From a virus (lineage: Duplodnaviria; Caudoviricetes), in the IMG/VR virus record IMGVR_UViG_3300028914_000075, positions 5,957 to 69,956 of that record: 64,000 bases of DNA. One strand, given 5' to 3'. Positions 35,260 to 53,284 of this stretch are shown piece by piece (position 1 is the stretch's first letter; every line of letters starts with the position of its first letter). Both the position numbers and the translations under genes were made by a program. The notes beneath the pieces are model-generated. The model saw only the letters and a list, made by a program, of their open reading frames with translations. It did no database searches and was not told where the DNA came from.

Positions 35260-36138
35260 ATGCCTAATTGGACAATCAGCTATACTGACGTTTTTGGTAA
35301 GAAGAAGGTGGAGTCGTTCAAGTCGCATGACGAAGCGCAGGCTCGCTACGCGGACTTGCTTCCACGTACTTACGGGGACCTCGGGGACCTTGAAAAGGTT
35401 ACAGCCCCGGTGAAATCCGCTGTTAAAGCTACGGAGTCATTACGGGATGACTTGAAGGAACAGTTTGATGACTTGGAGGATGTGGCCCGTCGTCTCATGC
35501 TAAATGGCGAAGATAATGCGGCAGGCCGTTATTTTTATGTAAAGCCGGGTCCTTCAAATTCTGCGTATCTTTCGATGTACAGTATTTTTTCCAAGACAGG
35601 TTCGCATGTCATGGATATTGTCGTTGGTGAAGAGACGGTGGATATCATCAATGGTGGTGATTACACGGATGAAGGGTTTGACGCAGCTTATGACGTTGTA
35701 GAACCTGTAGTTGCAGATATGTTCCGATTGGCATATTCTGACGGGAATACAGGTATCGTTCGTAAATTCAACAACAGTGCGGATTATCATAAAGCTATGA
35801 AGGAAGATTGCGGTGGTTCTTCTGCCGCATCGCTCGGTGCAGTCCCGACCGCCGTAGTTCGTCCGTCTCACAAGCAGGAAGCTTTGCCCCCTAAGAAATG
35901 GGGGATTACCAGACGGTTCCCGTCCCGTGCTGTGCTTGTGAACAAGGCCAAGAGTCTTCGTGGTACGGAAATCACCGATTTTGACGAATACTTGAAACTG
36001 AACAATGACCTTACGCTTGACAAGATTGGTTTTGCCATGGACCGCAACGGAAATTCCGTAGCACGTCTGTGGTGGGGCGAGGGTGACGAAAAGTATTACT
36101 ATTCTACAAGCCGCGATGTCCTGGATAGGACCGTGTAA
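35260..36138 (+). CDS. multi-module putative head protein
   Basis: Modules separated by KVES, ATES, MKEDCGGSS and KQEA; directly upstream of the protease. Confidence 0.6.
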   Translation: MPNWTISYTDVFGKKKVESFKSHDEAQARYADLLPRTYGDLGDLEKVTAPVKSAVKATESLRDDLKEQFDDLEDVARRLMLNGEDNAAGRYFYVKPGPSNSAYLSMYSIFSKTGSHVMDIVVGEETVDIINGGDYTDEGFDAAYDVVEPVVADMFRLAYSDGNTGIVRKFNNSADYHKAMKEDCGGSSAASLGAVPTAVVRPSHKQEALPPKKWGITRRFPSRAVLVNKAKSLRGTEITDFDEYLKLNNDLTLDKIGFAMDRNGNSVARLWWGEGDEKYYYSTSRDVLDRTV

Positions 36139-36159
36139 TTACAAAAGGACAGAAATATC

Positions 36160-37203
36160 ATGCAAATCGCAGAAGACTATATTCCATTTAAATGTGAATT
36201 TATAGACGATATCGCCCGCGTGGACGAGTCGGCGCAGTCCGAAGTCGCAAAGAGCGGCGGTACTATCCTGGCTATCGTGAAGGGTCAGCATTTTGTACCT
36301 GGCGGCATTTCTCGTAACCATCGCAAGTATACGGAAGAATTGTGGGAAGTGGCCGGGAAGGACGAGGACGTTCAGCGTAAGCTAAAGAACGGACAGATGT
36401 TTGGTCGTATCGGCCATGAAGCCGAAATTACAGACGAAGATATTGCCGAAGGTAAGTTCTCCCACATTACCCGTAATATTGACTGGAAGACAGGCGTTGC
36501 CGAATCGGTCATCTATAATACGGATATGGGTAAGACGCTATACACTATTCTTCGTGCGGGTACGACCATGTATGTCAGTTCCCGTGCCGATGGCGATTAT
36601 GAAGGTAAGGACGAGGACGGCAACGATATCCTTGACCCGAAGACCTACAAGCTTGAACGCTTTGACTTCGTGCAGGACCCTGGGTTCCTGGACGCAAAGC
36701 CGAAGATGATTTCCGAGAGCAAGAAGAACGAAAAGATTGAAGAAACCGTGAACGAACGTGTGGCCGAAGCTTTACTTTACCTTGCTAAGGAACTTGGGGC
36801 ACCTGTCGAACTTGACGGTAGCACCTATGTTGTCGAAAGTCTTGAAAAGTCCTCCGTATCCATGACAAATTGTGACAACGATACTTCGGATACTTACAAA
36901 TTCGAGGAATTTACCGAAGTGACCGCCGACTTGAAGCAGTCCGTTGTAAAATTTGTCGAGAGCCTGCGGGAAGACTTGAAGATATCCGAGGATACCATCC
37001 ACGATTTGAAGTTCGCCAACAAGCATGGGTTGAACGAAGATTATGTGAAGGAACGCCGTCGTGCAGGGGCTACGTATGAAGCTATCGAGCATGAACAGCC
37101 TGCCGTACAGACGTTTAAGATAGTGGAAGCCAAGGCGCCTGTCCGTGAGACGGGTGGCGACAACGACGGTTCATTGATTAGCTATATTCTCGGTAATCGC
37201 TAG
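36160..37203 (+). CDS. gp21: prohead core protease (T4 gp21 / U9 family)
   Basis: SRNHRKY...W, FGRIGH, SHI, NT..GK, VSSRADG and FDFVQDPGF..A.P motifs; C-terminal extension begins SESKKNE. Confidence 0.92.
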   Translation: MQIAEDYIPFKCEFIDDIARVDESAQSEVAKSGGTILAIVKGQHFVPGGISRNHRKYTEELWEVAGKDEDVQRKLKNGQMFGRIGHEAEITDEDIAEGKFSHITRNIDWKTGVAESVIYNTDMGKTLYTILRAGTTMYVSSRADGDYEGKDEDGNDILDPKTYKLERFDFVQDPGFLDAKPKMISESKKNEKIEETVNERVAEALLYLAKELGAPVELDGSTYVVESLEKSSVSMTNCDNDTSDTYKFEEFTEVTADLKQSVVKFVESLREDLKISEDTIHDLKFANKHGLNEDYVKERRRAGATYEAIEHEQPAVQTFKIVEAKAPVRETGGDNDGSLISYILGNR

Positions 37204-37215
37204 GAGGGCTTGATT

Positions 37216-37479
37216 ATGTCAAAGATGAAAATTAAGGTACACGAATCTGAAGAAACCCTGTTGGACAGTTTTGAAATGTTAGCTAATACCAGCAGTGTGG
37301 TTAGCAGCAGTCTGTCTGAACATGGGAATTATTCGTTGTGGTCCGTTGTTCGTGATATTCAAAATGGCTCCGAGCCGTTGGACACTCCTGCTGAGGTTAA
37401 GGCACAAATATTGAAAAAGAAAGCAAATATTGAAGCAGCGTTTGAAAATTTCATTACGAAGCTGGACGCTTATTTGTAA
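37216..37479 (+). CDS. putative internal head (cargo) protein
   Basis: Leader MSKMKIKVHES; GGAGGG RBS. Confidence 0.65.
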   Translation: MSKMKIKVHESEETLLDSFEMLANTSSVVSSSLSEHGNYSLWSVVRDIQNGSEPLDTPAEVKAQILKKKANIEAAFENFITKLDAYL

Positions 37480-37494
37480 TTTTGGGGGCAGGTT

Positions 37495-38115
37495 ATGGCA
37501 TTACGTATTAACCTACACGAAAGCAAGAAGACAGAAACACAGGGTCTTGTGTTCCTGCCAGACAGTTTGAAGTCTGACATTGAATACGAACTTCCGTCGC
37601 TTTACAGGGCTAACGGACTCGCCGTTTTCAAGGGTAAGGAAGAAGTCGAACCCGATGCAGCATGGGACGTAGAAGATATGTCCTGGGACGTTGACGAAGC
37701 CACCGTGGAAGGCAACTACCTTATGGTCGCTTTTAAGGACAATCCCGGTGCCGAAAAGGTAAAGTCTGTTATGGCTGACGAATACAAGAAGGCTGTGCTG
37801 CCCGAAGCCCTTGAACTTGTCGGCTACCTTGACGTGGGTGCCCTGCGTGACGCTTTCGGTGGGCAGGTCGTTGACGCTACGAAGGGCAAGGATTATGAAC
37901 TTGGCTACTACCTTGGCGACATTAACGATATGGGCGACGTTCCCGGTGGAATTGATAATGCCTACACTGAAAACGGTGAAGTTAGCTGTATGGTAGGAGC
38001 GTTTGGATTTACAGTGGCCGAGGCGGCTAATGGCAGCGAAATCAAGGAAACGCAATCTGTGGACGAAGCCTTGAAATTGGTCGAAGAACTGTATACCAAA
38101 TATAATTTTAGATAG
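37495..38115 (+). CDS. putative internal head (cargo) protein, acidic
   Basis: Leader MALRINLHESKKTE. Confidence 0.7.
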   Translation: MALRINLHESKKTETQGLVFLPDSLKSDIEYELPSLYRANGLAVFKGKEEVEPDAAWDVEDMSWDVDEATVEGNYLMVAFKDNPGAEKVKSVMADEYKKAVLPEALELVGYLDVGALRDAFGGQVVDATKGKDYELGYYLGDINDMGDVPGGIDNAYTENGEVSCMVGAFGFTVAEAANGSEIKETQSVDEALKLVEELYTKYNFR

Positions 38116-38125
38116 AGGTAGGAAT

Positions 38126-38695
38126 ATGAAAACTTTCTCAAGAGATGATTTGATTGCAGAACTCGCTTCTAATCTTTCGGTTATGCCGGATGGTTATGGC
38201 ACGTGGAAAGTTCGCAGTTATGTGGGGTATAGCCGTAATCCTATGGCAAAGGATTCGTTTATTACACACGATGAAGCCGACAACATTGGTGAAATGGACG
38301 GCGAGAAATACAATCCGCAGGACTTTGATGATTGGTATTCTTGGCAGGATTGGAAAGCCCATGGATGGGATGAAGAACCCGACCCGAGCGATTCTGAGGT
38401 TCGCTCTTTGTTTGATGAATACTGCAACGCTACGTGGTCTGATTCTGCCAACTCGGATAACTATGAGCCAGATGAAGATAGGGTTTTGCGTCTTGCCGAG
38501 AAGATTGTGGATATGTGGGATAATGGTAATTATCCCGACGACGTGTTTGTAGGGGATAACGGCTACTATATCTTTGAGGACGAGGACGAACAGAACGTGT
38601 TTGATGATAACCTTGGCTATTACATTACTCAATTCAACAACGGGAAGTTTGACGAATTTAACACCGAAGTTGAACGAGTCCATGATGGCGAATAA
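38126..38695 (+). CDS. very acidic protein (possible DNA mimic)
   Basis: About 48 D/E versus about 14 K/R in 189 aa (hand count); aromatic-rich. Confidence 0.6.
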   Translation: MKTFSRDDLIAELASNLSVMPDGYGTWKVRSYVGYSRNPMAKDSFITHDEADNIGEMDGEKYNPQDFDDWYSWQDWKAHGWDEEPDPSDSEVRSLFDEYCNATWSDSANSDNYEPDEDRVLRLAEKIVDMWDNGNYPDDVFVGDNGYYIFEDEDEQNVFDDNLGYYITQFNNGKFDEFNTEVERVHDGE

Positions 38696-38714
38696 TAATT
38701 TGAGAGGTTGCATT

Positions 38715-39590
38715 ATGGCATCTATGCATAAGAAGATTGAAGCGTTCAAGAAGAACGAAAGCGATGGTTCCGTATGGGACGTATTCGATGACCTCGTGGA
38801 TGGGTTGAAGGACTACGGCCTGTCACAGCAGGAAGCAGAAAAGGCTGTAGAGGATTCCGGCATTTCTTTGAGTTCTGTTAAGGCCGATGCCGAGGTGAAG
38901 GGGTATCCTCGTGCTATTATGGGTGCTCTTGATGCAGTTTATACTGTTTATATGGATAAACAGGAAGAATCTAAGAAGAACGAGGCCGATAGCGTTAGTG
39001 CGGTTGATTTCTGGAATAATTATATCAAGGACCGCACCATAGAAATTCTTGAATCCTACGATGTAAATTCCGCACAGGGCGGTGATGCATGGGAAAATAT
39101 CGGTGACGGTGTTGAAGAACGCGAGACCCGTTGGGATATAGGTGCTCTTCAGAAATCGTGGGAAACTACGTTGGGCCGGGTAGTCGGACAGGGTGTAGAT
39201 GATGAAACCGTGAAGAAGGAATATGACCGTGCTTATGAAGCTGGTATTGAAAAATGGCGCTCCGAAAATGGAGACGATGCCCCGTTGGATACCGAAGAGT
39301 TCTATGACTTTATTGACAGCTATACGACTGACGACAGTTGCACGTTCTTTGCAGAAGTCCGCGTGGTCCTTGACGACCGTGGTCATCTTATGGCTTCGCT
39401 TGGGCGCAACTTTGACTATTCCTACGGAGCGGATAACAAGTTCGTATCCGATATGGATGTCAGCATGTCTTTGGCGGATGGTCAGTTTACGAAGGAGAAC
39501 GCTGACAAGTTCCTTGACGCTTTTGAGGATTGCTTGACATCGTATTCGTTCTCGTACGGTTACAAGGATTATACAATAGAAGCCGTGTAG
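38715..39590 (+). CDS. two-module cargo protein
   Basis: ATG 38715 after GAGAGG; leader MASMHKKIEAFKKNES; internal linker EESKKNEA (38967). Confidence 0.7.
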   Translation: MASMHKKIEAFKKNESDGSVWDVFDDLVDGLKDYGLSQQEAEKAVEDSGISLSSVKADAEVKGYPRAIMGALDAVYTVYMDKQEESKKNEADSVSAVDFWNNYIKDRTIEILESYDVNSAQGGDAWENIGDGVEERETRWDIGALQKSWETTLGRVVGQGVDDETVKKEYDRAYEAGIEKWRSENGDDAPLDTEEFYDFIDSYTTDDSCTFFAEVRVVLDDRGHLMASLGRNFDYSYGADNKFVSDMDVSMSLADGQFTKENADKFLDAFEDCLTSYSFSYGYKDYTIEAV

Positions 39591-39610
39591 TTCGGCAAAG
39601 GTAGGAAAAT

Positions 39611-40723
39611 ATGACCTATAAATGCTCTATGCAGAAGAAGATTGAAAGCGTTACGAAACGAAATGAATGGTATCGGGGCGAACATGCCGATATATTTGAC
39701 GATATCCGTAGGGACACGTCTAACTCATGGTACATAGGTGCTACACGTATGATGCCGAGAAAATCGGGTGCCGTTACAGGGGCTATTGAAGATGACGATT
39801 ATCGTGATAGATTTGTCATAAACTTTACAGTGGCTTGTGACAATTTCGATTTCGGCCAAAATTCCGAAGAGTTGAAGGAGTTGGCGGATACTTGCTTGTC
39901 TATGTCCATTACAGACCGCAGTCCCCGTATCAAGGGTGATATGCTTGTTACGGCTGTGCCACTAGGTAATCCTGTAGCTAAGGGAAACTCCTGGAATTAC
40001 GATGTCGAATTGAAATATAACGACACGCAAAAAGGAGAAACTAAAATGACGTGTTCAATGCAGAAGAAAAAGGAAAGCTTTAGGAACACCTCCGAAAAGC
40101 GTACCGTCACCAAGAGTTACGATGTATATACCTACGACGAACTTTCCGGCGAAGCCAAGGAAAAAGTGAAAAAGATGTTCCTTGATTGGCGTAGTGACGA
40201 CGGAATGTTCAAAGAGGATTGCGTGAGTGCCCTTAACGAATTGTTCCCTAATTCCGATTTGGACATTGAATATCAACTGTCCTATACGCAGGGTGACGGA
40301 TTCAACACATCGGGTACCCTAAAAGTGGATGACCTTCTTAATGTTGACTTGTCCTATTATCCTCTCAATAAGTCGGGCATCAATCCGCTTTCGGATAAGA
40401 AAGCTATCAAGGCTGCATGTGAGGATGCAGGTATTTCAGAAATTAAGCTGCCTGTAAACCGTAGGTATGGGTATTCTATGGCTGACAGCATAGAACTGGA
40501 AACGGACAGCGGCTATTCTGTGGCAGATTTGGAAAGCTTGCCCGAGTCTGAAGTAGCACTATTGAATGAACTTGAAGACTTTGCACGCAGCGTATTCAAG
40601 CATATCAATGGCACGTTCAAAGACAACGGTTATGATTATTTCTACGAGATGTCGGATGAAGAAGCATCTGAACAAGCCGACGCAAATGGTTATGAGTTCA
40701 CCGAAGATGGTGAGATTGCATAA
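39611..40723 (+). CDS. fused two-cassette cargo protein
   Basis: Leader MTYKCSMQKKIES; second leader MTCSMQKKKES at ATG 40046 with its own AAGGAG RBS. The second module (YTYDELSGEAKEK...QGDG...ANGYEFTEDG) is a widespread phage domain. Confidence 0.7.
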   Translation: MTYKCSMQKKIESVTKRNEWYRGEHADIFDDIRRDTSNSWYIGATRMMPRKSGAVTGAIEDDDYRDRFVINFTVACDNFDFGQNSEELKELADTCLSMSITDRSPRIKGDMLVTAVPLGNPVAKGNSWNYDVELKYNDTQKGETKMTCSMQKKKESFRNTSEKRTVTKSYDVYTYDELSGEAKEKVKKMFLDWRSDDGMFKEDCVSALNELFPNSDLDIEYQLSYTQGDGFNTSGTLKVDDLLNVDLSYYPLNKSGINPLSDKKAIKAACEDAGISEIKLPVNRRYGYSMADSIELETDSGYSVADLESLPESEVALLNELEDFARSVFKHINGTFKDNGYDYFYEMSDEEASEQADANGYEFTEDGEIA

Positions 40724-40735
40724 GGAGGTACTATT

Positions 40736-41137
40736 ATGAAAAAGTGTTCGATGCTGAAGAAGATTGAAAGTCTTAAAAAGAAGTCCGAGGCTGCTTCGGA
40801 TATCATTCGTGTGATTGCTGAAAACGTTATGCTTACCGTCAATGACGTGTATGTAGACGAACATGGAGGTTCCTTCTCGGTTGAAATTCCCGAAGAAGGC
40901 AAGTCCTACGATTTGCTTTATATGAAGGAAATGATTCGTGGCATGTGCGAAGATTGCACGGGTTACGCTGACTATTCCCGTGACGGCAGTGAACTTCTCA
41001 TAAAAGTTATGGCAGGCGAAATGGACGATAATGGCGAATGGACGGGTGACTATTACACGGCCTATTCGTTCCGTTGCACCGCACGTATTATGAAATCTTC
41101 CCTTGAAGGAATCATAGACTTCCTAGACGAAGAATAG
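40736..41137 (+). CDS. putative cargo protein
   Basis: Leader MKKCSMLKKIESLKKKSEA; AAGGAGG RBS. Confidence 0.7.
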   Translation: MKKCSMLKKIESLKKKSEAASDIIRVIAENVMLTVNDVYVDEHGGSFSVEIPEEGKSYDLLYMKEMIRGMCEDCTGYADYSRDGSELLIKVMAGEMDDNGEWTGDYYTAYSFRCTARIMKSSLEGIIDFLDEE

Positions 41138-41480: not shown

Positions 41481-41969
41481 ATGGTTAATTTCCGTAAGAA
41501 ACTCCGCGAAGACGATTCCATCGTTGAAATTGGTGATGTCAAGCTTGACGCCAAGGAAACCGAAGTCGTGTTCGCCGATGAAGAAAAGGACATCCAGGTT
41601 GTCGTTTCCCCCGACCCGGAAAACGAAAACTCCGTGACTGTCGCAGTCCTCACCAACTCCAAGGAAGACGTGGAAGAAGAAGAAGTTCTTGGTTCCGCTT
41701 CTGTCGAAGGCAGTGAGGGCGAAGGCGCTGAAGAAGCTCGCAAGGCTGCCCGCCGTGAAGCTTTCCGCAAGCGTCTCGAATCCCGCGCCAAGGCTAAGAA
41801 TGCACCCGCCCGTAACGAGGCTCGTGTGTCCGAGTTCCGTAAGCGCCTTGAAGCACGCCGTGCCGAAAAGAAGGCAGAATCCAATAAGGGTGCTGCTTTT
41901 GCCGACCGTAAGAAGTCCATCGCTGAAGCACGTGCGAAGTTCCGTTCCAAAATTGGCAAGAAAGCCTAA
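41481..41969 (+). CDS. prohead scaffold/core-like protein
   Basis: Immediately upstream of the MCP with the same optimised codon usage; acidic N-half, basic C-half with repeated FRKRLE(S/A)R. Confidence 0.6.
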   Translation: MVNFRKKLREDDSIVEIGDVKLDAKETEVVFADEEKDIQVVVSPDPENENSVTVAVLTNSKEDVEEEEVLGSASVEGSEGEGAEEARKAARREAFRKRLESRAKAKNAPARNEARVSEFRKRLEARRAEKKAESNKGAAFADRKKSIAEARAKFRSKIGKKA

Positions 41970-41986: not shown

Positions 41987-43627
41987 ATGAAGACTTCCGT
42001 TGAAGAAATGTCTAACCAGAAGTACAACCGCCTCGTGGAAAGCTACGAAGCGCGTTACAGCAAGCAGTTCGAAGCTCTTGCTAAGTCCCCGTCGTTCAAG
42101 GGCACCCTGTCCAAGAATGCCATGTATAACCTCGGTATGCAGATGGACAACTACAAGCGTTACGAGTCCTACGTGAACGAAAACTCCTCGGCTTCCAGCC
42201 TCGGTGTTCTCCCGCGTGTCGCTCTTGACCTTATCTCTGCTACCTATGCCCTTTCCATTGCTCCGCAGTTGGCAAGCGTGCAGACCCTCGAAGAATCCCA
42301 GGGTCTTATCTACTTCAAGAAGACCTTCACCCACGGCTATCCGCTGACGGCTCAGAACGGCCTCCCGACTCTCCCGGAAGACCGTTGGATGGATGCCGAT
42401 GGCAAGCTTGACGGTGAATCCACCTTTGCAGGCGCTTGGAAGAAGTGGTACGATTCTCGTCCGCGTCCGGCTACCGATGGCACCACGCCTCTCAGCCCGG
42501 ATACCCTCGCAGCCAAGAACTTTGACGCTATCACTTTCAACGCTCTCAAGGGCTGGCAGGCTTCCCCGACTAGCTACATGAGCGAACGTCAGTTCGTCAT
42601 CGCTGCCGATGGTTCTGCCCGTATCAAGTACGGTATCGGCAATCTCCGTTGGAACGTTCCGATTAACGTCCGTCTCGTTGACGCTAGCGGCAATGTTGAA
42701 GATTCCGTCGGTGTCTGCGCTGGTCCGGGTCAGTTGCCGACCTTCTACGGCAAGGTTGCCGTGACCGCTGCACAGGACGGTGCGGATATCGTCCTCACCA
42801 TCCCGCAGGGATACCAGGGTGGCGTGACCTATGACGTGGACTTCGAAAAGGCCCCGGATGTCCCGGCCATCGAATACAGCCTTGACAGCAAGATTGTCTC
42901 CGCTGAAATCATCGGCTTGAAGGAAAACCTTGGCACGTTCAAGTCCTTCCAGTTCAATAAGCGTTTCGGCAAGGCTGCTTCCGATGAAGTTCTCGCCGAC
43001 CTCACAGGCCACATGGCCATGGCTGAATCCGAAAAGATTCTCAACGCTTACAGAATGAGCGCTAACAAGTGGAAGCCGATTACTTGGAACCTCAACAAGA
43101 CTGCGGGTATCAGCGAGTTCGAACACCGTCAGTCCTTCCTCTATGCTATCCAGGCTGCTTCTGCTGCTATCGGTAGCCGTGCAGGTAAAGGTCATGCCAA
43201 CAAGCTCGTTGCTGGCTATGTCGCTGCACAGTACATTGCATCCCTCCCTGGATTCCGTCTTGCACCGCAGACGAACCTTGTCGGTCCGCACGTGTACGGT
43301 ACCCTCGAAAACGAAGGTATCACGGTTATCCGTAGCAATGCCGTCGTCGCCCCGAACGAAGTTATCGCCGCTTACAGCAGCGACAACAGCCCGTTCGAAG
43401 CCCCGGTTGTGTGTGCAACGTATATGCCTGTCTTCTTGACGGACACCATGCCTGTTGCAGACAATCCGTTCCAGACTCAGCGTGCTATCGCTTCTTGGAA
43501 GGCTATCGAACCTGTCGTTTCCGAATTTGTCCAGCGTATCATCATTACGAAGGATGCGGAAGCCCCGGCAGATGTCAATGTCTTCCTTACTACCACCCCG
43601 AACGGTGGCAGTGGAAGCAATGGCTAA
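41987..43627 (+). CDS. gp23: major capsid protein (T4 gp23-like)
   Basis: ALSIAPQLASVQTL...GLIYF, EIIGLKENL, ANKLVAG, GPHVYGTL, APVVCATYMPV...NPFQTQRA motifs; strong RBS; highly biased codons. Confidence 0.93.
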   Translation: MKTSVEEMSNQKYNRLVESYEARYSKQFEALAKSPSFKGTLSKNAMYNLGMQMDNYKRYESYVNENSSASSLGVLPRVALDLISATYALSIAPQLASVQTLEESQGLIYFKKTFTHGYPLTAQNGLPTLPEDRWMDADGKLDGESTFAGAWKKWYDSRPRPATDGTTPLSPDTLAAKNFDAITFNALKGWQASPTSYMSERQFVIAADGSARIKYGIGNLRWNVPINVRLVDASGNVEDSVGVCAGPGQLPTFYGKVAVTAAQDGADIVLTIPQGYQGGVTYDVDFEKAPDVPAIEYSLDSKIVSAEIIGLKENLGTFKSFQFNKRFGKAASDEVLADLTGHMAMAESEKILNAYRMSANKWKPITWNLNKTAGISEFEHRQSFLYAIQAASAAIGSRAGKGHANKLVAGYVAAQYIASLPGFRLAPQTNLVGPHVYGTLENEGITVIRSNAVVAPNEVIAAYSSDNSPFEAPVVCATYMPVFLTDTMPVADNPFQTQRAIASWKAIEPVVSEFVQRIIITKDAEAPADVNVFLTTTPNGGSGSNG

Positions 43628-45888: not shown

Positions 45889-47313
45889 ATGAACAAGAGT
45901 TCCATGCAGAAACGAATCGAATCATTCAAGCAGTCCGAAGCAGCTGGAAACAGCGTTTCCAACTTCAGAAGGGATAGCCTCGGTGTTTCCTTCGACGGTA
46001 AGTTCGGCACTATGCGCAAGGCCGAAGATTGGGTAATCTACCCGACGAAGGCCGATGACAAGACTTTTGACATACAGAGCGACAAGCGCTGGGCAACCAT
46101 CGACAAGGATACAGGAGAGATGTGGCTTTCCGCCCCGCATAGCTTTGCCAACAATTACGTTCTTGCCATGGACAAGCGTTCCGGGAAGGCACAGCACATT
46201 ACTTTGGAACCCGAAGTTCTGAAGCAGTTCCTTGACGCTATTGGCGACCGTCGTATTATGGACCATAGCCTTGACAAGATTGCCGTTAGTTCGGACGTGA
46301 CCGATGCGGAACTTCGTGGGGAATCCGTGAAGAACGAAGCCCGCTACTTCGCAACTGCGGATTGGTGGAAACGCTTCCAGGACGACTACAACGATATGTA
46401 TGACGGCATGGGCTTCGAGTTCAAGTTTGACGGACCGAACAATAAGGCGGATATCTATTCCAACGGGAAGATGCTCGGCTCGATTTCATGGAAGGGTAAG
46501 TATAAGCTGCTCGATGAAGACGGGAAGTGGCTCTACAGGAGCAATGCTCCCGAATTTAGGGATTTCATCTATAACTTGGTCAAGTATCATGGTGACGACA
46601 TGAACAAGCACTACAATGGTACTGTAGCCAAGCGTAGCTGGGAAGACTATGATGCGGATTCTGCCTATTCTAAAGTCAGCGGACCTGTGGCGGATGCCTA
46701 CAAGCTGCTTGACGGCTATTTTTGCGATGACAAGGGTGCCTTGACAAAGGATGCACTTGATAAGGTATATCTGACTTATAGGAACGAACGTGACCTTTAC
46801 GACCGTAGTAAGATGAAATCCGTGCAGTCGCATTCTCTTGCGTGGGATGCGTTACTTCGCGAAATCAATGCTACCCTCGAATGGGACGACGAATATCCGC
46901 ATGCTACTAAGCTGTCTCCTATGCAAGTGAAGACTTGGTTTAAGCTCAAGAATCGTGATTTCAAGGAAGACCTCAAGCCGTTGGTTGGCGCTATAGATGC
47001 TTATCGTAGCAAGGGAGAATCCAAGAAGTCCGAAGCAGCAGAGTCCGATTTTATTAAGGATTTCCGTGCCTATATGGCCACAATGGTTGGTGAATCCTAC
47101 GACGAACAAGACCTTATCGGTTGGGGATGGGAATGGAAGTCTGAAGAAGACGAATACGTTGATGGCGAAAAGACTTGTGTTGCAACTTATACTATGACAG
47201 ACGACGGTGTTCCGTACAAGTTGGTTGTAAAGTGGAATAGTTTTATGGAAACTATTAACGGATACGATTTGTGGCAGGAACAGCCTAGTGAATCCAAGAA
47301 GTCCGAAGCCTAA
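45889..47313 (+). CDS. multi-module polyprotein-like cargo (3 modules)
   Basis: Leader MNKSSMQKRIESFKQSEA; linkers ESVKNEA (46321), ESKKSEA (47017), terminal ESKKSEA (47290). Confidence 0.8.
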   Translation: MNKSSMQKRIESFKQSEAAGNSVSNFRRDSLGVSFDGKFGTMRKAEDWVIYPTKADDKTFDIQSDKRWATIDKDTGEMWLSAPHSFANNYVLAMDKRSGKAQHITLEPEVLKQFLDAIGDRRIMDHSLDKIAVSSDVTDAELRGESVKNEARYFATADWWKRFQDDYNDMYDGMGFEFKFDGPNNKADIYSNGKMLGSISWKGKYKLLDEDGKWLYRSNAPEFRDFIYNLVKYHGDDMNKHYNGTVAKRSWEDYDADSAYSKVSGPVADAYKLLDGYFCDDKGALTKDALDKVYLTYRNERDLYDRSKMKSVQSHSLAWDALLREINATLEWDDEYPHATKLSPMQVKTWFKLKNRDFKEDLKPLVGAIDAYRSKGESKKSEAAESDFIKDFRAYMATMVGESYDEQDLIGWGWEWKSEEDEYVDGEKTCVATYTMTDDGVPYKLVVKWNSFMETINGYDLWQEQPSESKKSEA

Positions 47314-47325
47314 GGCGACAAGGAA

Positions 47326-47646
47326 GTGTTCACCATTGACCTGTATCGCATTGATGCCGACGGGGAAGAAGAAGGCTTGGACGACATGGCCGCATCCAAA
47401 ATCTACTACTCCGATGAAGACGCTATCAAGGATGCACAGGGCATTGTCGATGGCTACAAGGACGATGCTGGTGTAGTGTTTGCGGTAGTCATGGGCGGTG
47501 AAGTTGAAAAGCCTAGCGGAGACATTGTAGGCAACCCTATTGATATCTATTGGGCATCGTCTAGCGACAAGGCTACGACTTCCGATTTCCGTGAAAAGGC
47601 TAGATATGCAGCGTATGACAATGCCATGGATTATTACGCAAAATAA
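47326..47646 (+). CDS. acidic module in frame with the upstream polyprotein
   Basis: Same frame as 45889-47313, separated by one TAA; weak independent start. Confidence 0.55.
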   Translation: MFTIDLYRIDADGEEEGLDDMAASKIYYSDEDAIKDAQGIVDGYKDDAGVVFAVVMGGEVEKPSGDIVGNPIDIYWASSSDKATTSDFREKARYAAYDNAMDYYAK

Positions 47647-47667
47647 GTTTCAAACAGGAGAAAACAG

Positions 47668-48363
47668 ATGTCTGACAAAAAGTTTAATAACAAGAAGTCC
47701 GAAGGCGTTGAAGCCTTGAAAGATAAGGTTGTGTCCGATGGAACCTTGAAGCCACAGGACCTTATTCCGAAATTCCTTGATACCTTGAAATATGACGAGG
47801 AAGCCCATTCCAAGTTCTTGAAGGACTTTCCCGAAATCCTTGAAATCCAGTCATGGGATGAATTGGATGAAGAAACGCAGTCGATGCTCGTGGACGAGCT
47901 TATTGACGCTCTCAATGGTATTGCTCCCGAAGGTTACTTCTTCGGTGCGTCCGAGGGTGACGGGGCTAGCTTTGGTTTTTGGTCGGTAGGTTCCGACGAA
48001 TCCAAGAAGCCAGAAGCCAAGAAATGCGAAGCTTCCAACACAATCAAGATGAACATCGACTACAACACGTTCATGCGTCTTTGCGACAGTGCTGCTTATT
48101 TGAGCGGTGACAAGGATTATCATGATGCCTTGTGGAATTATTACTTTGATGGCGGTGAGATTACTGTACGTGCTGACGAGTTCTTCGATAACTTGTTCCA
48201 ATATACAGATTGGAAGGATGCCGAAGAAATCTATGACGAAGTGTTGGACGACGAGTACAAGGATGACAGCAAGTTCAAGGAAGAATGCATACAGGCAGCC
48301 ATTGACGCAGGGGACCTTGATGCATACCAGCAAGACAACGGCATGTACTTGATTGTTTATTAA
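47668..48363 (+). CDS. two-module cargo protein
   Basis: Leader MSDKKFNNKKSEG; module 1 is the ALNGIAPEGYFFGASEGDGASFGFW phage domain; linker ESKKPEAKKCEA (47998). Confidence 0.75.
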   Translation: MSDKKFNNKKSEGVEALKDKVVSDGTLKPQDLIPKFLDTLKYDEEAHSKFLKDFPEILEIQSWDELDEETQSMLVDELIDALNGIAPEGYFFGASEGDGASFGFWSVGSDESKKPEAKKCEASNTIKMNIDYNTFMRLCDSAAYLSGDKDYHDALWNYYFDGGEITVRADEFFDNLFQYTDWKDAEEIYDEVLDDEYKDDSKFKEECIQAAIDAGDLDAYQQDNGMYLIVY

Positions 48364-48384
48364 ATACAGTAAGGAACAGAGATT

Positions 48385-49101
48385 ATGCTTGAACCCGATG
48401 ACCAGAAAGTTTATTTTACGTCCGATGACCTGTCGGAACTTTATCCCGAAGCCGAAGACCCGATGGATGCTGCTCTTAATGTCCTTGAAGGCGAGCAGTC
48501 TTTTATCGTAGTGGATGGCAAGGAATTGCCTTTGGGCTACGATGCTGAAAAGGACGCTATCATTATTGAAGACTACGAGGCATCCCCCGAAATTGTCCGA
48601 AAGGCTCGCCAACTTATGCAGTTGTTCGTGGATAACGAACTGTTCACTACCCGTGATATTGAAGGGCAGAATGGGTATATGCCTGATGGCGACTATCCGT
48701 ATTCCGTGAATGTGGCAGACGGACAGTCGTATAGCGTTGTGTCCTATTATCCATCCGAAGAAATGATTTACCCGACTGAAGTTAGTATTTGGTCGGGCAG
48801 TGGCTATACCACGAATGACATCTATGTGGACGTGGATGCCGACAATGCCCAGGGTGCTCTTGAAGTAGCCGTGGCTGTTGCGGACAAGCGTGGGTGGACA
48901 GCTATTTTGTTAGACCCTGCCGAAGTTGAACAGGATATGGCAAATGACGGTCATTACAATATGGAAACGGGCGAGGGCGATAGAGTTTTTGATGAAACTT
49001 ATCTGTATGTGGACGCAACTATGGAAGGTGCTTCACAGCCGTATTATGTGTATGCAGAGAACCTGAGTGTTCGCCCGAATGAGTATTTGAAAATTAAATA
49101 G
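48385..49101 (+). CDS. two-module acidic protein
   Basis: N-module is paralogous to a module of 43921-45873 (VLEG.QSF...ELPLGYD); C-module ends YVDATMEGASQPYYV. Confidence 0.7.
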   Translation: MLEPDDQKVYFTSDDLSELYPEAEDPMDAALNVLEGEQSFIVVDGKELPLGYDAEKDAIIIEDYEASPEIVRKARQLMQLFVDNELFTTRDIEGQNGYMPDGDYPYSVNVADGQSYSVVSYYPSEEMIYPTEVSIWSGSGYTTNDIYVDVDADNAQGALEVAVAVADKRGWTAILLDPAEVEQDMANDGHYNMETGEGDRVFDETYLYVDATMEGASQPYYVYAENLSVRPNEYLKIK

Positions 49102-49123
49102 GAATAATACAGGAGAATTTACG

Positions 49124-49600
49124 ATGACTTTGAAAATCAATACCCGTAAGTTTGAAGGCAAAGTATCCAGTGCTACGCAGCGTGTACAGTTCCGTAGTAA
49201 TGGCGTTCATGAAAGTTACAAGGATTATGACGCCATAACCAATTTCCTTGAAGCCATACTTGACGGTGCCAATACTATGTTTACACGGGTCTATACTTCC
49301 GATAATGGCCCCGGTGAGATTTGTATAGAAATCGAAGGTTGGGATTCTACGGATGGTGACTGTATTATGTCTATCGTGTTTGACGAACAGGAAAGTTTTG
49401 AAGACACTATAGGTGAAATTGCTAATGAACTTGAAGACTATGCAAGTGATTTTGACCCAGAAGAAGAAGCAAACAAGTATATGAATGCTAATGTTCCGGG
49501 AACACCGTCTTTGCGTAAGCTGTTAAAGGCTATGGATGAACGAAAGGCGGACATGGTTGCTTTGGCGGATGCCGTTAGGGCAGCGTATAACAAGATGTAA
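49124..49600 (+). CDS. putative cargo protein
   Basis: Leader MTLKINTRKFEG...VHES. Confidence 0.7.
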   Translation: MTLKINTRKFEGKVSSATQRVQFRSNGVHESYKDYDAITNFLEAILDGANTMFTRVYTSDNGPGEICIEIEGWDSTDGDCIMSIVFDEQESFEDTIGEIANELEDYASDFDPEEEANKYMNANVPGTPSLRKLLKAMDERKADMVALADAVRAAYNKM

Positions 49601-49822
49601 TTAACGATAACTGCAAGAAATCCCATCTATCTTTAGTGGGTGAGATGAATTGCCAGAAAGAATAAGGTATATTATGTACAACAATACGGTTGGAACGACC
49701 GGAATTTATGCCGAGGGAGATATGGTATGCAATAGCGTAGCAGCTCCGGAATCCTGCAAGCCTATGATGTGTGAAACCCACACGTCTTCAGCGTGTGGGG
49801 AGTTCATAAACAGGGGAAGAGT

Positions 49823-51643
49823 ATGTCTTTGAAAATCAAAACACATAAGTTTGAAAGCCGTGTAGCTCCCGCTGCACAGCGTCGTCCGTTTGGTCGTAAG
49901 GCTGAATCCCGGAAGAATGAAGAAGCCGAAATCAAGGACAAGCAGTATTACCTTGATATGTTTGATAAAGCGTATAAGGAATGCGTCCAACTAGACATTG
50001 ACAATGGCGGTAATGGCGAGGGTTGGGCAGATTACTTTACCGACACAAAGAATTATGGGGATTTCACTCAAAAAGAAGCCGACGAAATTGTTGGTTATTA
50101 TATGGAGTTCCACCCCGAAGCCGATGAGGAACCCGATAGACCTTACAAGGATTGGTTGGATAATACGAGGGGTCTTGTTCTTACCCCGTTGGACAAGGAA
50201 ATCACCCGTATCTTGAAAGCCCTGTATGCTGCCGACGAATCCAAAAATTCCGAAGCCACGAGTTTCGGTGCTGGCATGTCCAAGCGTACGGATTTTTCCA
50301 AGATGCGTAATCTCGGTGACATCCTAGACGCACTTGAAGAACATCGCAAGCTCATGGAAAGCAAGGCAACCGACCTGTCCAAGAGCAAGGAAGATTTGAA
50401 GGCTTCTATCAAGGCTCTCAATGAATTTTCCGAACATGTCCTGTTCTTGAAGCAGCAGTCAGTCAAGGGTATCAAGGACGCCATTGCGTTCAACAAGTCT
50501 CCCGAAGTCAAGGCCGCCGCCGATGTAGAGAAGCATTTGAAGGATGCCCTCAAGATTCTTTATTCCGACTACGAGAATATCCCAGACGTTACACAGTTGC
50601 TGACAGTTATTGACAGCCGTTATGCCACCCGTGGCGACAAAGTTGTTGTATCGTGGGTAGATAATGCCGACCGTGCTATCGAAGTGGATTCCAAGACAAT
50701 CAAGGACAGCATCGCTGCCGGGGACATCTCCGAAGATGATGTCGTCAAGCTTGTGACCGTAACGTCCGTAACGCACGGTGTCAAGAACAAGGACACTGTT
50801 GAAAAATTGACACCCGTTCTTGAACGCATGAATGCCCTGCTTATGACTGCTCCGAAGATTGAAGAAGCTGTCATCGACCCGAAGGAATTTAAGGAACTGC
50901 GTGACCTCGTGGAACAGATTGTGAAGGAAGCGTCCACCCCGAAGGACACTATCAAGACCACAATCACTACGCTTTCCAAGGGAGATATCGACAAGATTCG
51001 TAAGGAATCCTTCGTATCCGAAGGTCTTCTTGACAAGCTCAAGGAACTTGTTTCCACTCTCAAGGACAAGATTTCTTCCTTGTGGAACTCCTTTACTTCC
51101 CTGTTCTTTAGTTTGGAAGATGAAGCGCTAGAATCTGCTGATACCTTCGCTGAAGTCGAGGAAACCTTTGCCATCATGGGTATCGTGGTCGAATCCTATG
51201 TGGCGAAGCGTATTCCGCTGGGTAAGCAGTTCGAAGTCCTTACTAAATCCGTCCTTCATTGTTGTGACAGGCTTGTTAAGGATACATCCCTTGCAGGCGA
51301 GTTCGACGACGAAGTTATCTACACAGAAGAAGCCGTCAAGAATGCCGTTGAATCGTTCCATGCTTTCGGAGAGGCCTGCAAGACCTTGAAGAACGCCCTG
51401 TCCTACCACAAGAACGAAGACAACATGAATGTCATCGGTATTCTTGCGGACGCCATTACCCAGATTGTAAATGATGACAATGGCGGTTCGGTTGAGGGTG
51501 ATTCCGACTCCGAAGAAGACGAAGATTCTGTAATTAACCGTGTCGAACGGGAATACAGCCCCGAGGGTGGCGAGGAAGGTGAAGAAGGCGGAGCCGAACT
51601 TTCGGGACAAGAAACTGAAGAAGAACCAAATACAATCGGTTAA
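49823..51643 (+). CDS. large multi-module putative internal head protein
   Basis: Leader MSLKIKTHKFES...AESRKNEE; linker ESKNSEA (50237); coiled-coil core; acidic tail. Confidence 0.75.
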   Translation: MSLKIKTHKFESRVAPAAQRRPFGRKAESRKNEEAEIKDKQYYLDMFDKAYKECVQLDIDNGGNGEGWADYFTDTKNYGDFTQKEADEIVGYYMEFHPEADEEPDRPYKDWLDNTRGLVLTPLDKEITRILKALYAADESKNSEATSFGAGMSKRTDFSKMRNLGDILDALEEHRKLMESKATDLSKSKEDLKASIKALNEFSEHVLFLKQQSVKGIKDAIAFNKSPEVKAAADVEKHLKDALKILYSDYENIPDVTQLLTVIDSRYATRGDKVVVSWVDNADRAIEVDSKTIKDSIAAGDISEDDVVKLVTVTSVTHGVKNKDTVEKLTPVLERMNALLMTAPKIEEAVIDPKEFKELRDLVEQIVKEASTPKDTIKTTITTLSKGDIDKIRKESFVSEGLLDKLKELVSTLKDKISSLWNSFTSLFFSLEDEALESADTFAEVEETFAIMGIVVESYVAKRIPLGKQFEVLTKSVLHCCDRLVKDTSLAGEFDDEVIYTEEAVKNAVESFHAFGEACKTLKNALSYHKNEDNMNVIGILADAITQIVNDDNGGSVEGDSDSEEDEDSVINRVEREYSPEGGEEGEEGGAELSGQETEEEPNTIG

Positions 51644-51693: not shown

Positions 51694-51756
51694 TCATTTT
51701 GTTGCCATGGTGCTATATTGTACATGACAGCCACGGCATACAGAAAGGAACAATGT

Positions 51757-51921
51757 ATGACGTTAAGTGAAAAAACAAAAGAACTCTATGATTCGTTGAA
51801 GCAGGAGTGCGCCGAGAAGAACTTGAACCTTGCCTGGGAAGTACACAAGGCATTGAAGAAGTTCCGCAGCGAGCATCCCGACCTTGACGAGCAGTGGTCT
51901 CTTGAAGCCTTGAAGTGCTGA
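51757..51921 (+). CDS. 54-aa helical protein
   Basis: AAAGGAA RBS; MTLSEKTKELYDSLKQEC...; TATATT box upstream. Confidence 0.6.
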   Translation: MTLSEKTKELYDSLKQECAEKNLNLAWEVHKALKKFRSEHPDLDEQWSLEALKC

Positions 51922-51942
51922 CCGAAATTGACAGATACTTTA

Positions 51943-52001
51943 TAGGTATTTTGTTATATTTATTAGGTATCTTGTTATATTACTAGGTAATTTGTTATAT
52001 T
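51943..52001 (+). repeat. three tandem copies of an 18-nt promoter/operator motif
   Basis: TAGGTATTTTGTTATATT (51943), TAGGTATCTTGTTATATT (51964), TAGGTAATTTGTTATATT (51984); period 20-21 nt. Confidence 0.9.
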
Positions 52002-52114
52002 TATTTTGTATAAAATAAATCTTTGTTCATTAAACCAAAATTCTGTGGTAATGCTCCGCAGAATTTTTATTATTTTTAAAATGTTGCAACAAAAATTAAA
52101 GGAGTATTCCTAAA

Positions 52115-53284
52115 ATGAATTTTACCGAAAATGCAAAGACTAAATTTTGGGCAGACCTGCACGCAGGAATCAAGTCCACGTTCGGTCATTCTATCGGTGA
52201 GGCTTTCCACCTTGACCAGTACAAGAGTGGTCGCTTTACGTTCACCGAATCTGTCACGGGCGGACCGGGCGCTGTCACACAGCTTATGGACAGCTTGAAG
52301 GCATCGTCCCCTGTCATCGAGTCCGTTCGTATGACACCAATTTCTAACGGTTACAATGCCACGTACAATGTATCCGTAGAGTTCGACCCCATGAAGGCCG
52401 AAGCCGTTTACAGTGACGGGAAGAACAGCGTCAAGTCGTTCGAGAAGGACGGCAAGACCTATATCGTCGATGACGACGGTTCCGCCATGGAAGTCGATGA
52501 CGCAGACAAGTTTATGGATTCGTTAAACAAGACTACGGGTTCTAGTTTCAAGAAGAAGGAAAACGCCGATGAAGTCGATATGGACGGATTCCCTATTGAA
52601 CTTGATTCAGTAATTGCACTTGCCAATGAAGCCCTTGACGGTACGGGTGTCACTATTTCCAAGGAAGACGGGAAGCTTGTTGTTCGGGGCAATTCCGAAC
52701 TTGTGAAACCTACACAGCAATATCTCCCTGCACCGAGCTATGATATGGAAGTCATGGACGGGGGCTATGACGACGATACGGGGGACCTCGTAGTGTCTGT
52801 TCCAGACTACCCGTCCGATGCCGAGCTTGAACAGCTTCGTTCCTTCCTTATTGATGCCGTGAACTACGTCATTGACAACACGCTTTCTAAGGCCGACACT
52901 TGCAGTGACGATGAATGGTGTGACGCCATGGAGAAGGCCGAGCCGTGCGAGTCTTACGCACGTAAGTACGGCTATCTTGGCGAATCGTTTGTCGGTAGCG
53001 ACAAGCAGAAAGTCGCTGTATTGGTGAAATCCTTGTTGCAGGAAAACCGTATCGAGGAAGCCAAGGCTGTAGCCACTAAGCATATGGGTGCGGAAATGGC
53101 CGAAGGATTTACCCGTAAGTATGCACCGGAAAAGGTTGAGGAAAAGCACTCGGCTGTCATTACCGACGAGATGGCATTGCTTGACAGGATGCATGAATCC
53201 GCCATGAACCGTGCTCCCGAAAAGGCCGTAGAGATGGATTCTCTCGTAGCCAAGAATTTGTTCAATAAGAAGGAGAATGTCTGA
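52115..53284 (+). CDS. acidic virion/prohead-associated protein
   Basis: 389 aa directly before the sheath gene; many x-x-E-S sites; AAAGGAG RBS. Confidence 0.6.
   Translation: MNFTENAKTKFWADLHAGIKSTFGHSIGEAFHLDQYKSGRFTFTESVTGGPGAVTQLMDSLKASSPVIESVRMTPISNGYNATYNVSVEFDPMKAEAVYSDGKNSVKSFEKDGKTYIVDDDGSAMEVDDADKFMDSLNKTTGSSFKKKENADEVDMDGFPIELDSVIALANEALDGTGVTISKEDGKLVVRGNSELVKPTQQYLPAPSYDMEVMDGGYDDDTGDLVVSVPDYPSDAELEQLRSFLIDAVNYVIDNTLSKADTCSDDEWCDAMEKAEPCESYARKYGYLGESFVGSDKQKVAVLVKSLLQENRIEEAKAVATKHMGAEMAEGFTRKYAPEKVEEKHSAVITDEMALLDRMHESAMNRAPEKAVEMDSLVAKNLFNKKENV

Follow-up and report, generated by a model that had tools for sequence, protein, structure and literature searches.

In phage T4, the internal proteins IPI, IPII and IPIII and the Alt protein carry a capsid-targeting sequence that is removed by gp21 (Mullaney and Black 1996, as summarized in PMC5694885 and PMC9026906). 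Polyvalent proteins are mosaics of many unrelated domains (Iyer et al. 2017, PMC5512222). Their genes lie in the context of virion genes, and packaging and delivery together with the DNA have been predicted for them. They are defined by ART, MuF, metallopeptidase, ParB-like, ArdC and other domains, their processing through an embedded peptidase has been proposed, and their rapid domain shuffling has been read as host conflict (PMC5512222). The jumbo phages phiKZ, 201phi2-1 and SPN3US have many internal head proteins and a Glu-specific protease, which makes several cuts per substrate at A-x-E or S/A/G-x-E; long N-terminal propeptides are removed in this way and for the most part exit the head, and about 80% of the head proteins of SPN3US remain uncut (PMC10052503, PMC5694885, PMC7411985). 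The P1 Dar proteins (DarA, DarB, Hdf, DdrA/B and Ulx) are head-packaged anti-restriction proteins encoded by late genes, some of them processed (discussed in PMC5512222); they are separate large proteins with ordered, co-dependent packaging, and have neither a shared leader or linker code nor a polyprotein design.

We analyzed a window of 64,000 nucleotides of viral DNA. Positions 35260-53284 are best read as the head module of a jumbo myovirus, so far uncultured, whose capsid protein is of the T4 type and whose prohead protease is of the gp21 type (Table 1). About 16 non-core ORFs on the + strand surround the capsid and head-protease genes in this interval. The layout is that of an operon: the gaps next to the protease and capsid genes measure 10-22 nt, and each ORF of the array has its own ribosome-binding site and a normal stop. 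The major capsid protein is 64-90% identical across 14 related loci (handles of the form L001), and the protein encoded at 41481, of putative scaffold-like function, is present in all relatives at 59-83% identity. The ~13 kb of cargo genes would represent an insertion into this head module. Our best reading, which we consider fairly likely, is that the T4-type route of capsid targeting and prohead proteolysis has here been extended to modular polyproteins. The ORF at 52115 (69-79% identity in L001 and L004) is included only because it lies inside the coordinates first proposed for the array; there was no sign of a tie to the cargo system.

Table 1. Features of the head region (window coordinates; ↓, predicted cleavage point)
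Position	Strand	Feature	Remark
35260..36138	+	Leaderless ORF, 292 aa	Conserved N-terminus NWTISYTDVFGKKKVES; C-terminal ~90-aa module
36160..37203	+	Prohead protease	gp21-like catalytic domain aa 1-185; 156-aa C-terminal extension
36715..36732	+	ESKKNE at catalytic domain/extension boundary	Within protease 36160
37216..37479	+	Cargo ORF, 87 aa	Class A leader MSKMKIKVHE↓S
37495..38115	+	ORF, 206 aa, conserved body	Class A leader then linker, MALRINLHE↓SKKTE↓T
38126..38695	+	Very acidic orphan, 189 aa, pI 4.05	No leader or linker
38715..39590	+	Two-module ORF, 291 aa	Class B-like leader MASMHKKIE↓AFKKNE↓S; linker 38967
39611..40723	+	ORF, 370 aa	Class B leader, module, internal class B leader 40046, second module
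40736..41137	+	ORF, 133 aa	Class B leader MKKCSMLKKIE↓SLKKKSE↓A
41481..41969	+	Scaffold-like charged helical protein, 162 aa, core head gene	Position and composition
41987..43627	+	Major capsid protein, T4 gp23 family, core head gene	Pfam Gp23, E 1e-10
43921..45873	+	Leaderless polyprotein, 650 aa, 5-6 modules	Linkers 44515, 44836, 45211, 45625
45646..45870	+	Constant C-terminal module, 75 aa (SLTLKQKE...NLFYFV)	End of 43921
45889..47313	+	Polyprotein, 474 aa, class B leader	Linkers 46321 (weak), 47017, 47290; end ...ESKKSEA-stop
47326..47646	+	Leaderless module, 106 aa	In frame with 45889
47668..48363	+	Two-module ORF, 231 aa	Start MSDKKFNNKKSE↓G; double linker ESKKPE↓AKKCE↓A at 47998
48385..49101	+	Conserved leaderless protein, 238 aa	48-84% identity in relatives
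49124..49600	+	ORF, 158 aa	Variant class A leader MTLKINTRKFE↓G
49823..51643	+	ORF, 606 aa	Class A leader; linkers 49904, 50237; variable 111-aa module; 462-aa part
52115..53284	+	Conserved acidic ORF, 389 aa	No leader or linker; directly before tail sheath gene
36715, 37519, 38967, 44515, 45211, 47017, 47290, 47998, 49904, 50237	+	Strict linkers E-S-[KR]-[KN]-x-E	36715 within protease
44836, 45625, 46321, 48013	+	Weaker linker copies	EDKKTEG, SCKKSES, ESVKNEA, AKKCEA
37216, 37495, 49124, 49823	+	Class A leaders	
38715, 39611, 40046, 40736, 45889	+	Class B leaders	40046 internal

The preliminary description of this locus held that the array ORFs begin with one of two short leaders. This applies to 9-10 of the ~16 non-core ORFs; leaders are lacking in 35260, 38126, 43921, 47326, 48385 and 52115, and 47668 has only a short M..KKSE↓G start. 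Neither leader nor linker was found in 38126, 47326, 48385 and 52115. Class A leaders are N-terminal, comprise ~10 residues and have the form M-S-K-M-K-I-K-V-H-E↓S, while class B leaders read ..K-C-S-M-x-K-K-I-E↓S-L-x-K-K-x-E↓A. Class A leaders ending in [VLI]-x-E occur in 45 non-redundant ORFs, four of them in the window, which start M-x-K-[ML]-x-I-[KR]-[VLI]-x-E followed by S or A; class B leaders occur in 15. With about 10 aa, a hydrophobic P3 and Glu at P1, the sequence of class A leaders supports a fit to the T4 capsid-targeting format (PMC5694885).

The locus resembles the T4 system in several respects. A gp21 (Peptidase S77)-family protease and a gp23-type capsid protein are encoded in the head module, unrelated products of late head genes share a leader of about 10 residues that ends in hydrophobic-x-Glu, here (L/I)-x-Glu, the set of cargo genes is variable, and the protease is predicted to process itself. 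Unlike in T4, the leaders fall into two classes, the cargo genes number dozens instead of four and the recognition motif has seven residues rather than three; internal linkers would generate 2-6 products per ORF, and a constant C-terminal module offers a possible second entry route. The cargo has no sequence similarity to T4 proteins, and no cargo ORF matched an internal-protein or Alt family in Pfam or PHROG. T4 internal proteins are basic, whereas the cargo here is acidic (pI 4.05-5.2, D+E 15-25%), as had been noted, although the rest of the window is mildly acidic too (median pI 5.2).

The linker motif E-S-[KR]-[KN]-x-E occurs 10 times in the window, always on the + strand and between 36715 and 50237, with no copy elsewhere in six frames. 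Every motif position given in the preliminary description was recovered, far above chance expectation, and the comparison that it had proposed between head and non-head ORFs revealed clear enrichment. Across the 70-kb contig, 5,488 aa of head-region ORFs held 10 strict motifs and 21 copies of KK.E, versus 0 and 1 in the 15,792 aa outside. The other five frames of the contig gave no hit, and the major capsid protein lacks the linker motif altogether. Related phage records of 186-216 kb contained 4-16 copies on the coding strand, in differing sequence contexts; the DNA pattern was matched 9, 16, 15 and 4 times on the forward strand of four whole records and 0, 0, 0 and 1 times on the reverse, and a reversed-pattern control on the records of relatives gave 0 matches. 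Among 63 distinct linker contexts the core was invariant and the flanks variable, with a small residue after the second Glu. The P3 residue of the first Glu was variable, being hydrophobic at only about 40% of sites, and that of the second was Lys. The original proposal that the phage generalizes the T4 route is partly supported: leaders and linkers form one conserved, protein-level signal system on the coding strand, associated with the head genes and also with the gp21-like protease.

The protease matched phrog_207 (head maturation protease, E 1.7e-20), and a match to Pfam Peptidase_S77 (E 1.5e-4, 21.8 bits, below the 27-bit curated cut-off) ended at aa 188. H86 and S140/S141, which we take to be the counterparts of the T4 catalytic residues, were invariant in six relatives. 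Judging from the sequence, the ESKKNE in the protease is a probable self-cleavage site. I184, E186, S187 and K188 (I-x-E-S-K) were invariant in six proteases, and the second Glu was missing in L007 (ESKQEK). Autocleavage has been reported for SPN3US gp245 (PMC10052503), a parallel to the motif at the end of the S77-like domain here.

We further analyzed how the linkers relate to protein structure and to exchange among phages. In two AlphaFold models, pLDDT fell below 50 exactly at one leader and three linkers, between folded domains and not inside them. In 47668 this was the case only at aa 1-9 and 109-126, leaving two folded domains, and both linkers tested in 43921 had low confidence. Homology blocks in relatives start and stop at linkers: 26% of internal BLAST block ends lay within 8 aa of a linker versus 5% expected, with starts peaking at the first linker Glu and ends at the second. 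The same module can be leader-borne, internal or C-terminal depending on the phage. These observations support the conclusion that linkers bound independently folding modules, which are exchanged independently between phages. The modules measured 74-232 aa, plus one of 462 aa, rather than the 60-150 aa first estimated.

Upstream of the capsid gene, the N-terminal 200 aa of 35260 were 50-53% identical in L001 and L002, and its C-terminal module (aa 203-285) recurred within post-capsid polyproteins of L004 and L002; the ORF had no match in Pfam or PHROG. No homologue was found for 37216 in six related head modules or for 38126 among the relatives searched. The body of 37495 was 89% identical in L001 and 32-68% in others, and a leader always preceded it. 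Module 2 of 38715 (201 aa) followed a class A leader directly in L002 and a linker in L001, L003 and L012. Module 2 of 39611, which matched phrog_5162 (E 2.8e-13), stood alone in relatives, where its leader was of class A in L008 and of class B in L002 and L009. The 40736 module was preceded by an ESRKNE linker in L008.

Downstream of the capsid gene, 43921 had 174 database relatives of 357-1138 aa, which matched only 12-53% of the polyprotein, and its BLAST blocks ended at aa 204, 306-311, 432-436 and 576. Modules of 45889 appeared in other contexts in L014 and L005-7. A single TAA, right after a linker, divides 45889 from 47326, whose homologue in L002 lies inside a 1265-aa ORF, at aa 401-486. 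Module 1 of 47668 was N-terminal, internal or leader-borne depending on the relative, while module 2 was C-terminal behind a linker in every relative. The N-terminal half of 48385 is a paralogue of 43921 module 2b (34% identity to 43921 aa 337-430). Homologues of 49124 in L002 and L009 were preceded by MSKM.IKVRE↓SKKNE↓A. The 462-aa part of 49823 is conserved, helical and acidic-tailed (64-85% identity in L001, L002, L004 and L014, always behind a linker-like site), and is probably a core internal head protein.

Compared with polyvalent proteins, 43921 likewise combines unrelated domains (5-6 modules, within the 2-15 typical of that class) as a mosaic in virion context, between capsid and sheath genes, and domain shuffling is common to both. 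However, Pfam searches of 50 related polyproteins and 96 cargo ORFs did not recover the polyvalent hallmark domains (ART, MuF, metallopeptidase, ArdC, DdrB-ParB, lysozyme etc.), and here the prohead protease would separate the modules in trans, cutting at a stereotyped linker. A MuF-type polymorphic head toxin does not fit, as no Phage_Mu_F match was found in the window proteins, related polyproteins or cargo ORFs, and the polarity is reversed, with variable N-terminal modules and a constant C-terminal 75 aa. As in the phiKZ and SPN3US type, several cuts per substrate and autocleavage of a C-terminal protease propeptide are predicted; that type lacks a fixed linker between exchangeable folded modules, and the motif E-S-K-K-x-E-(A/S/G) and the leaders of about 10 aa set this locus apart from it.

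Most likely, the head protease cuts the leader and linker signals and the capsid is thereby loaded with a fast-changing set of small proteins. Proteins would enter the prohead through an N-terminal class A leader, through a class B leader or, for the gene after the capsid gene, through fusion upstream of the constant 75-aa module. The protease inside the prohead would then cleave behind Glu at three kinds of site, namely the leaders, its own C-terminal extension and all E↓S-K-K-x-E↓(A/S/G) linkers; each linker probably has two scissile bonds five residues apart. The products would be folded acidic modules of 70-230 aa, retained in the head and presumably ejected into the host, where the variable modules may serve counter-defence or takeover; because nearly all modules are orphans, such an effector role can only be inferred. 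More tentatively, the locus may embody a general capsid-loading code, in which a small domain of any kind would be packaged, cut free and injected once it stands behind a leader or between linkers upstream of the anchor, so that ~25-40 pre-made proteins per strain act before phage gene expression, with linker DNA as the reshuffling seam.

The products might instead be structural, cut in the prohead but serving as scaffold or core, an inner-body-like mass or packaging-density filler, and expelled or inert rather than acting as effectors; we regard this as unlikely. T4 gp22, gp67 and gp68 do yield fragments that exit the head, and the propeptides of SPN3US undergo several cuts (PMC5694885, PMC10052503). 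Some parts of the array also evolve as conservatively as the structural core (37495 body, 89% identity; 49823 462-aa part, 85%; 75-aa module, 93%), and because these motif-bearing proteins are conserved like core parts, the array appears to combine core head components with variable cargo. Domain searches recognized no effector domain: Pfam matches were nearly absent from the 96 non-redundant cargo ORFs, and the 50 polyproteins and 96 ORFs together yielded five families once each (ParBc_2, DUF4313, RING, Fib_succ_major and Lcl_C) besides a Lar-like (restriction alleviation) zinc ribbon. This ribbon, present in 3 of the 50 polyproteins, argues against purely structural products, as does the folding of most modules into 70-230-aa domains rather than short peptides. 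Turnover beside the core genes is moreover extreme: only 9 of the 25 modules recur in a phage whose capsid protein is 90% identical, and 7 of 25 occur in none of six relatives.

It is improbable that the repeat is mainly a DNA-level cassette joint based on microhomology, with the peptide an uncleaved flexible linker in intact multidomain proteins. Linkers 45211, 47017 and 47290 share 19 identical nt, homology breakpoints cluster at linkers, and the linker Ser codon is TCC at 83% of sites versus 30% in the background, a bias strong enough to indicate a DNA-level process as well. Yet Ser is kept through both TCC and AGC, which are not interconvertible, and the Glu and Lys codons vary, which points to selection at the protein level. 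The motif is also always in frame on the coding strand, follows Glu-ending N-terminal leaders like known prohead-protease sites, and marks a conserved domain boundary of the protease, a place with no sign of cassette exchange. A joint can coexist with cleavage; under the protease-based reading, the near-identical linker DNA would also provide the recombination sites through which modules are gained, lost and exchanged among related phages. That leaders and linkers are docking peptides rather than protease sites, recruiting proteins into the head by binding scaffold, capsid interior or DNA, is similarly doubtful: the T4 sequence does act first as a targeting signal (PMC5694885) and a basic KK core could bind acidic partners, but the invariant features are two Glu and the small residue that follows, which matches Glu-specific prohead proteases, the copy between protease catalytic domain and tail fits autocleavage, and docking needs no tandem copies.

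If the extended T4-type route is correct, it would be the first polyprotein strategy for virion cargo in a tailed phage, a strategy undescribed for this group, with one protease and one short linker code turning few genes into dozens of packaged proteins. Capsid cargo, besides early genes, could then be a large and rapidly exchanged accessory genome, and about a hundred orphan small domains would become candidate inhibitors of bacterial defence or host functions. The compact code of leader, linker and anchor might also be used to package foreign proteins in capsids, a use to which the T4 capsid-targeting sequence is already put.

The candidate capsid anchor is the 75-aa module at the end of 43921 (pLDDT 85-94 in AlphaFold). 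Of 120 related polyproteins, about 105 terminate in it; its identity in relatives is 77-93%, and it was C-terminal in all multi-module proteins among the matches listed. Its family, which comprises 574 clusters at 50% identity and may flag similar systems in other phage lineages, also includes free proteins of 70-80 aa, and in distant members a [hydrophobic]-x-E-S-basic junction often directly precedes the domain.

All of the leaders and linkers listed in the preliminary description were present in the window. The strict linker motif, E-S-[KR]-[KN]-x-E, occurred in 10 copies, all on the + strand from 36715 to 50237, with no match in the other five frames. Over the whole contig, the strict motif was found 10 times in the 5,488 aa of the head region and not once in the 15,792 aa outside it, and KK.E was found 21 times versus once, demonstrating that the motif is clearly commoner in the head region than elsewhere in the genome. 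The single KK.E among the non-head ORFs looks below composition expectation, and its scarcity could mean that chance protease sites are avoided. A DNA pattern for the motif, run against four related phage records, matched the coding strand 9, 16, 15, and 4 times and the other strand 0, 0, 0, and 1 times, while a reversed-pattern control never matched; the majority of matches fell in the head module. Three loci from related complete records, L015 (G002:98000-111000), L016, and L017, held a second leader/linker gene cluster roughly 45-50 kb from the head module (for example MSKMKIKVHES... and MKHQCSMQKKIES..., with polyproteins of 591-717 aa). The place matching this cluster would fall off the present contig.

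The viral contig is 70 kb long, of which the window covers 64 kb. From 35260 to 55617, every gene lies on the + strand, with gaps of 10-22 nt, ribosome-binding sites, and normal TAA/TAG stops. The interval between the protease and capsid genes is 4.8 kb and that between the capsid and sheath genes 9.6 kb, the extra DNA being the array. The nearest cultured phages, whose capsid proteins share only 24-35% identity with that of the window, have compact head modules in which the protease and capsid genes are followed by about 3-4 kb of small genes and then the sheath. A compact head module with no such array was seen in the distant cultured relatives Vibrio phage Va2 and Rhizobium phage RHph_TM30. 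Capsid-protein identity rises to 64-90% in uncultured relatives, which belong to records of 186-216 kb.

Head and tail genes assigned in the window
Feature	Position	Strand	Evidence
gp21-like prohead protease	36160-37203	+	phrog_207, E 1.7e-20; Pfam Peptidase_S77, E 1.5e-4 (below cut-off)
T4 gp23-family major capsid protein	41987-43627	+	Pfam, E 1e-10
Tail sheath	53284-55617	+	phrog_23

Five consecutive ORFs (43921-49101) share one reading frame. Stop-codon recoding or read-through as the cause was rejected, because each TAA/TAG stop precedes a new ribosome-binding site and start codon. At 47290-47328, ORF 45889 ends in ...ESKKSEA and TAA, and the next module begins 12 nt further on at a same-frame GTG with its own ribosome-binding site. 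Modules homologous to the end of 45889 and to 47326 are fused inside a 1265-aa ORF in the related locus L002, so either a polyprotein has been divided precisely at a linker here or the modules have become fused in that relative.

Across the window and 14 related loci, the linker was found in 63 distinct sequence contexts. Its core was invariant, position 5 was S, N, K, P, or T, the residue following the second Glu was A, S, G, or D, and the flanks were unconstrained. Because the Glu and Lys codons vary and Ser is encoded by both TCC and AGC, a change not attainable silently, the peptide itself is under selection. The linker Ser codon was TCC in 83% of sites versus a background of 30%, and the copies at 45211, 47017, and 47290 share 19 identical nt. 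This bias and identity also point to spread or homogenization of the linker at the DNA level.

The linkers bound exchangeable modules. Window modules recurred in relatives in different contexts, with homology stopping at the linkers. The first module of 47668 (104 aa) was leader-borne in L004, internal in L005-7 and L014, and N-terminal in 938-1265-aa ORFs of L002, L008, and L009; the second module of 38715, module 2b of 43921, the 40736 module, and the second module of 39611 were each located immediately after a leader in some cases and after a linker in others. When the 650-aa ORF 43921, the leaderless polyprotein gene that follows the capsid gene, was used as a query, 174 proteins of 357-1138 aa were retrieved that shared only 12-53% of it. 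When 120 of these 174 were compared all against all, 26% of internal alignment ends lay within 8 aa of a strict linker versus 5% of random positions; alignment starts were most frequent at the first Glu of the linker and alignment ends at its second Glu. Apart from a resemblance between module 2b of 43921 and the N-terminal half of 48385, the modules of the window were mutually unrelated.

Structure prediction placed the linkers between these modules. The AlphaFold model of 47668, built on a clean 23-row alignment (mean pLDDT 74), comprised two folded domains, and pLDDT fell below 50 only at aa 1-9, the leader, and aa 109-126 (ESKKPEAKKCEA). For 43921, the full-length model was given up because MAFFT had placed non-homologous modules of mosaic relatives on the query at 15-30% identity, and modeling was restricted to a 339-aa part (aa 312-650) with a cleaner alignment. 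Confidence was low over aa 406-450, which holds ESKKSE, and aa 568-576 (SCKKSES), and the flanking folded modules had pLDDT of 66-94. All three linkers modeled in these two ORFs therefore lie outside folded domains.

Motif confinement, module exchange at linkers, and low-pLDDT linkers together provide good support for the signal system and modular design within the earlier proposal of head-targeted, protease-cleavable cargo polyproteins. That proposal is partly supported overall, with the predicted cleavage, packaging, and effector role falling outside this part.

The leaders were also conserved as peptides. Among relatives, 45 non-redundant ORFs started with the class A sequence M-S-K-M-K-I-K-V-H-E followed by S or A, and 15 more started with the class B sequence ..K-C-S-M-x-K-K-[IK]-E|S-L-x-K-K-x-E. 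Class A leaders share their length and [VLI]-x-E ending with the capsid-targeting sequence of T4 (PMC5694885). Interpretation of the leaders as signal peptides or lipoboxes was rejected, as their sequences are basic and amphipathic rather than hydrophobic and KCSM is no lipobox. Many class A leaders lack the second Glu and many N-termini consist of just M-(K)K-x-E-A/G, indicating that the two halves of the linker also occur singly. The linker would thus offer two candidate cuts at Glu-small bonds five residues apart. Class A-like starts were also seen outside the head module, at 61511-61888 of the window and at contig bases 4206-4706 upstream of it (MSLKIKIRQ..., MLKITLNEQ...); these two ORFs may be cargo genes or chance matches.

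The protease itself carries a copy of the motif at aa 186-191, exactly at the end of the S77 profile and ahead of a 156-aa extension. I184, E186, S187, and K188 were invariant in six proteases, and the second Glu was replaced in one (ESKQEK, locus L007). In SPN3US gp245, a C-terminal propeptide is taken off by autocleavage (PMC10052503). We predict that the motif copy is a self-cleavage site, and the bond after its first Glu (I-S-E|S) would fit the T4 rule, with a hydrophobic residue at P3. At the N-terminus of the capsid protein (41987-42060), R-[LIQ]-V-E-[SA]-Y-E-A is kept in all relatives; it places a hydrophobic-x-E|S site, resembling those of the leaders, at residue 18, where the protein may be cut during maturation.

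In about 105 of the 120 relatives of the post-capsid gene, the C-terminus is one and the same 75-aa module (...NLFYFV), preceded by ESKKSE|S. The sequence upstream of it is variable throughout, and a leader is usually lacking. A profile search with this end module retrieved 574 clusters at 50% identity, including free-standing proteins of 69-80 aa, and the module was C-terminal in every multi-module match listed (up to 1316 aa). In several distant lineages, [hydrophobic]-x-E-S-basic-basic precedes the domain. The module could not be named from Pfam, PHROG, PDB, or the Atlas: an ESM Atlas search with the module and one free-standing relative gave no named cluster, and its profile matched only a designed-repeat artefact among PDB sequences. 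We infer that the end module belongs to the head as a small, conserved part and that fusion to it would provide a second way into the prohead, with release at the last linker. Some relatives of 43921 (P0004, P0093, and P0094) also contain the module internally, as an additional copy that has diverged to about 36% identity.

As a mechanism, the T4 capsid-targeting and gp21 route offers the best description, with three extensions: the fixed recognition peptide is longer, it doubles as the linker between modules, giving several predicted products per ORF, and a candidate C-terminal anchor is added. Because there is no homology, the system falls outside the T4 internal-protein families. Judged by hallmark domains, it does not belong to the polyvalent proteins either. 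It also differs from phiKZ/SPN3US processing, which removes propeptides at A-x-E or S-x-E. A non-exhaustive literature search found no published account of tailed phages with cargo polyproteins joined by such linkers.

Only 9 of 25 window modules had a counterpart in L001, a locus whose capsid protein and protease domain are 90% and 94% identical, and 7 of the 25 had none in six relatives. Conserved parts were also present, namely the two modules of 47668, 48385, the body of 37495, and a 462-aa part of 49823. Given this turnover of many modules alongside conserved parts, the array combines putative core proteins of the head interior with cargo that changes rapidly. Pfam, PHROG, and PDB sequence searches with all window cargo ORFs gave nothing useful beyond phrog_5162 and phrog_29605, both function-unknown families. 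Fold searches gave background-level matches only, the best Foldseek match of the 47668 model in the PDB having an E of 0.32. T4 IPI* and Alt are the established precedents behind a counter-defense reading. A putative counter-defense role is suggested by this analogy, the polyvalent-protein concept (PMC5512222), and the turnover pattern. A Lar-like restriction-alleviation zinc ribbon was found in 3 of 50 polyproteins, and 96 non-redundant cargo ORFs of relatives gave only single Pfam matches, to ParB-like nuclease, DUF4313, RING-type zinc finger, Fib_succ_major, and Lcl_C. The Fib_succ_major match, in one ORF, was to the Fibrobacter succinogenes major domain (E 2.6e-17); the hosts may accordingly be Fibrobacter-like rumen bacteria, which the window GC of 44-53% would fit.
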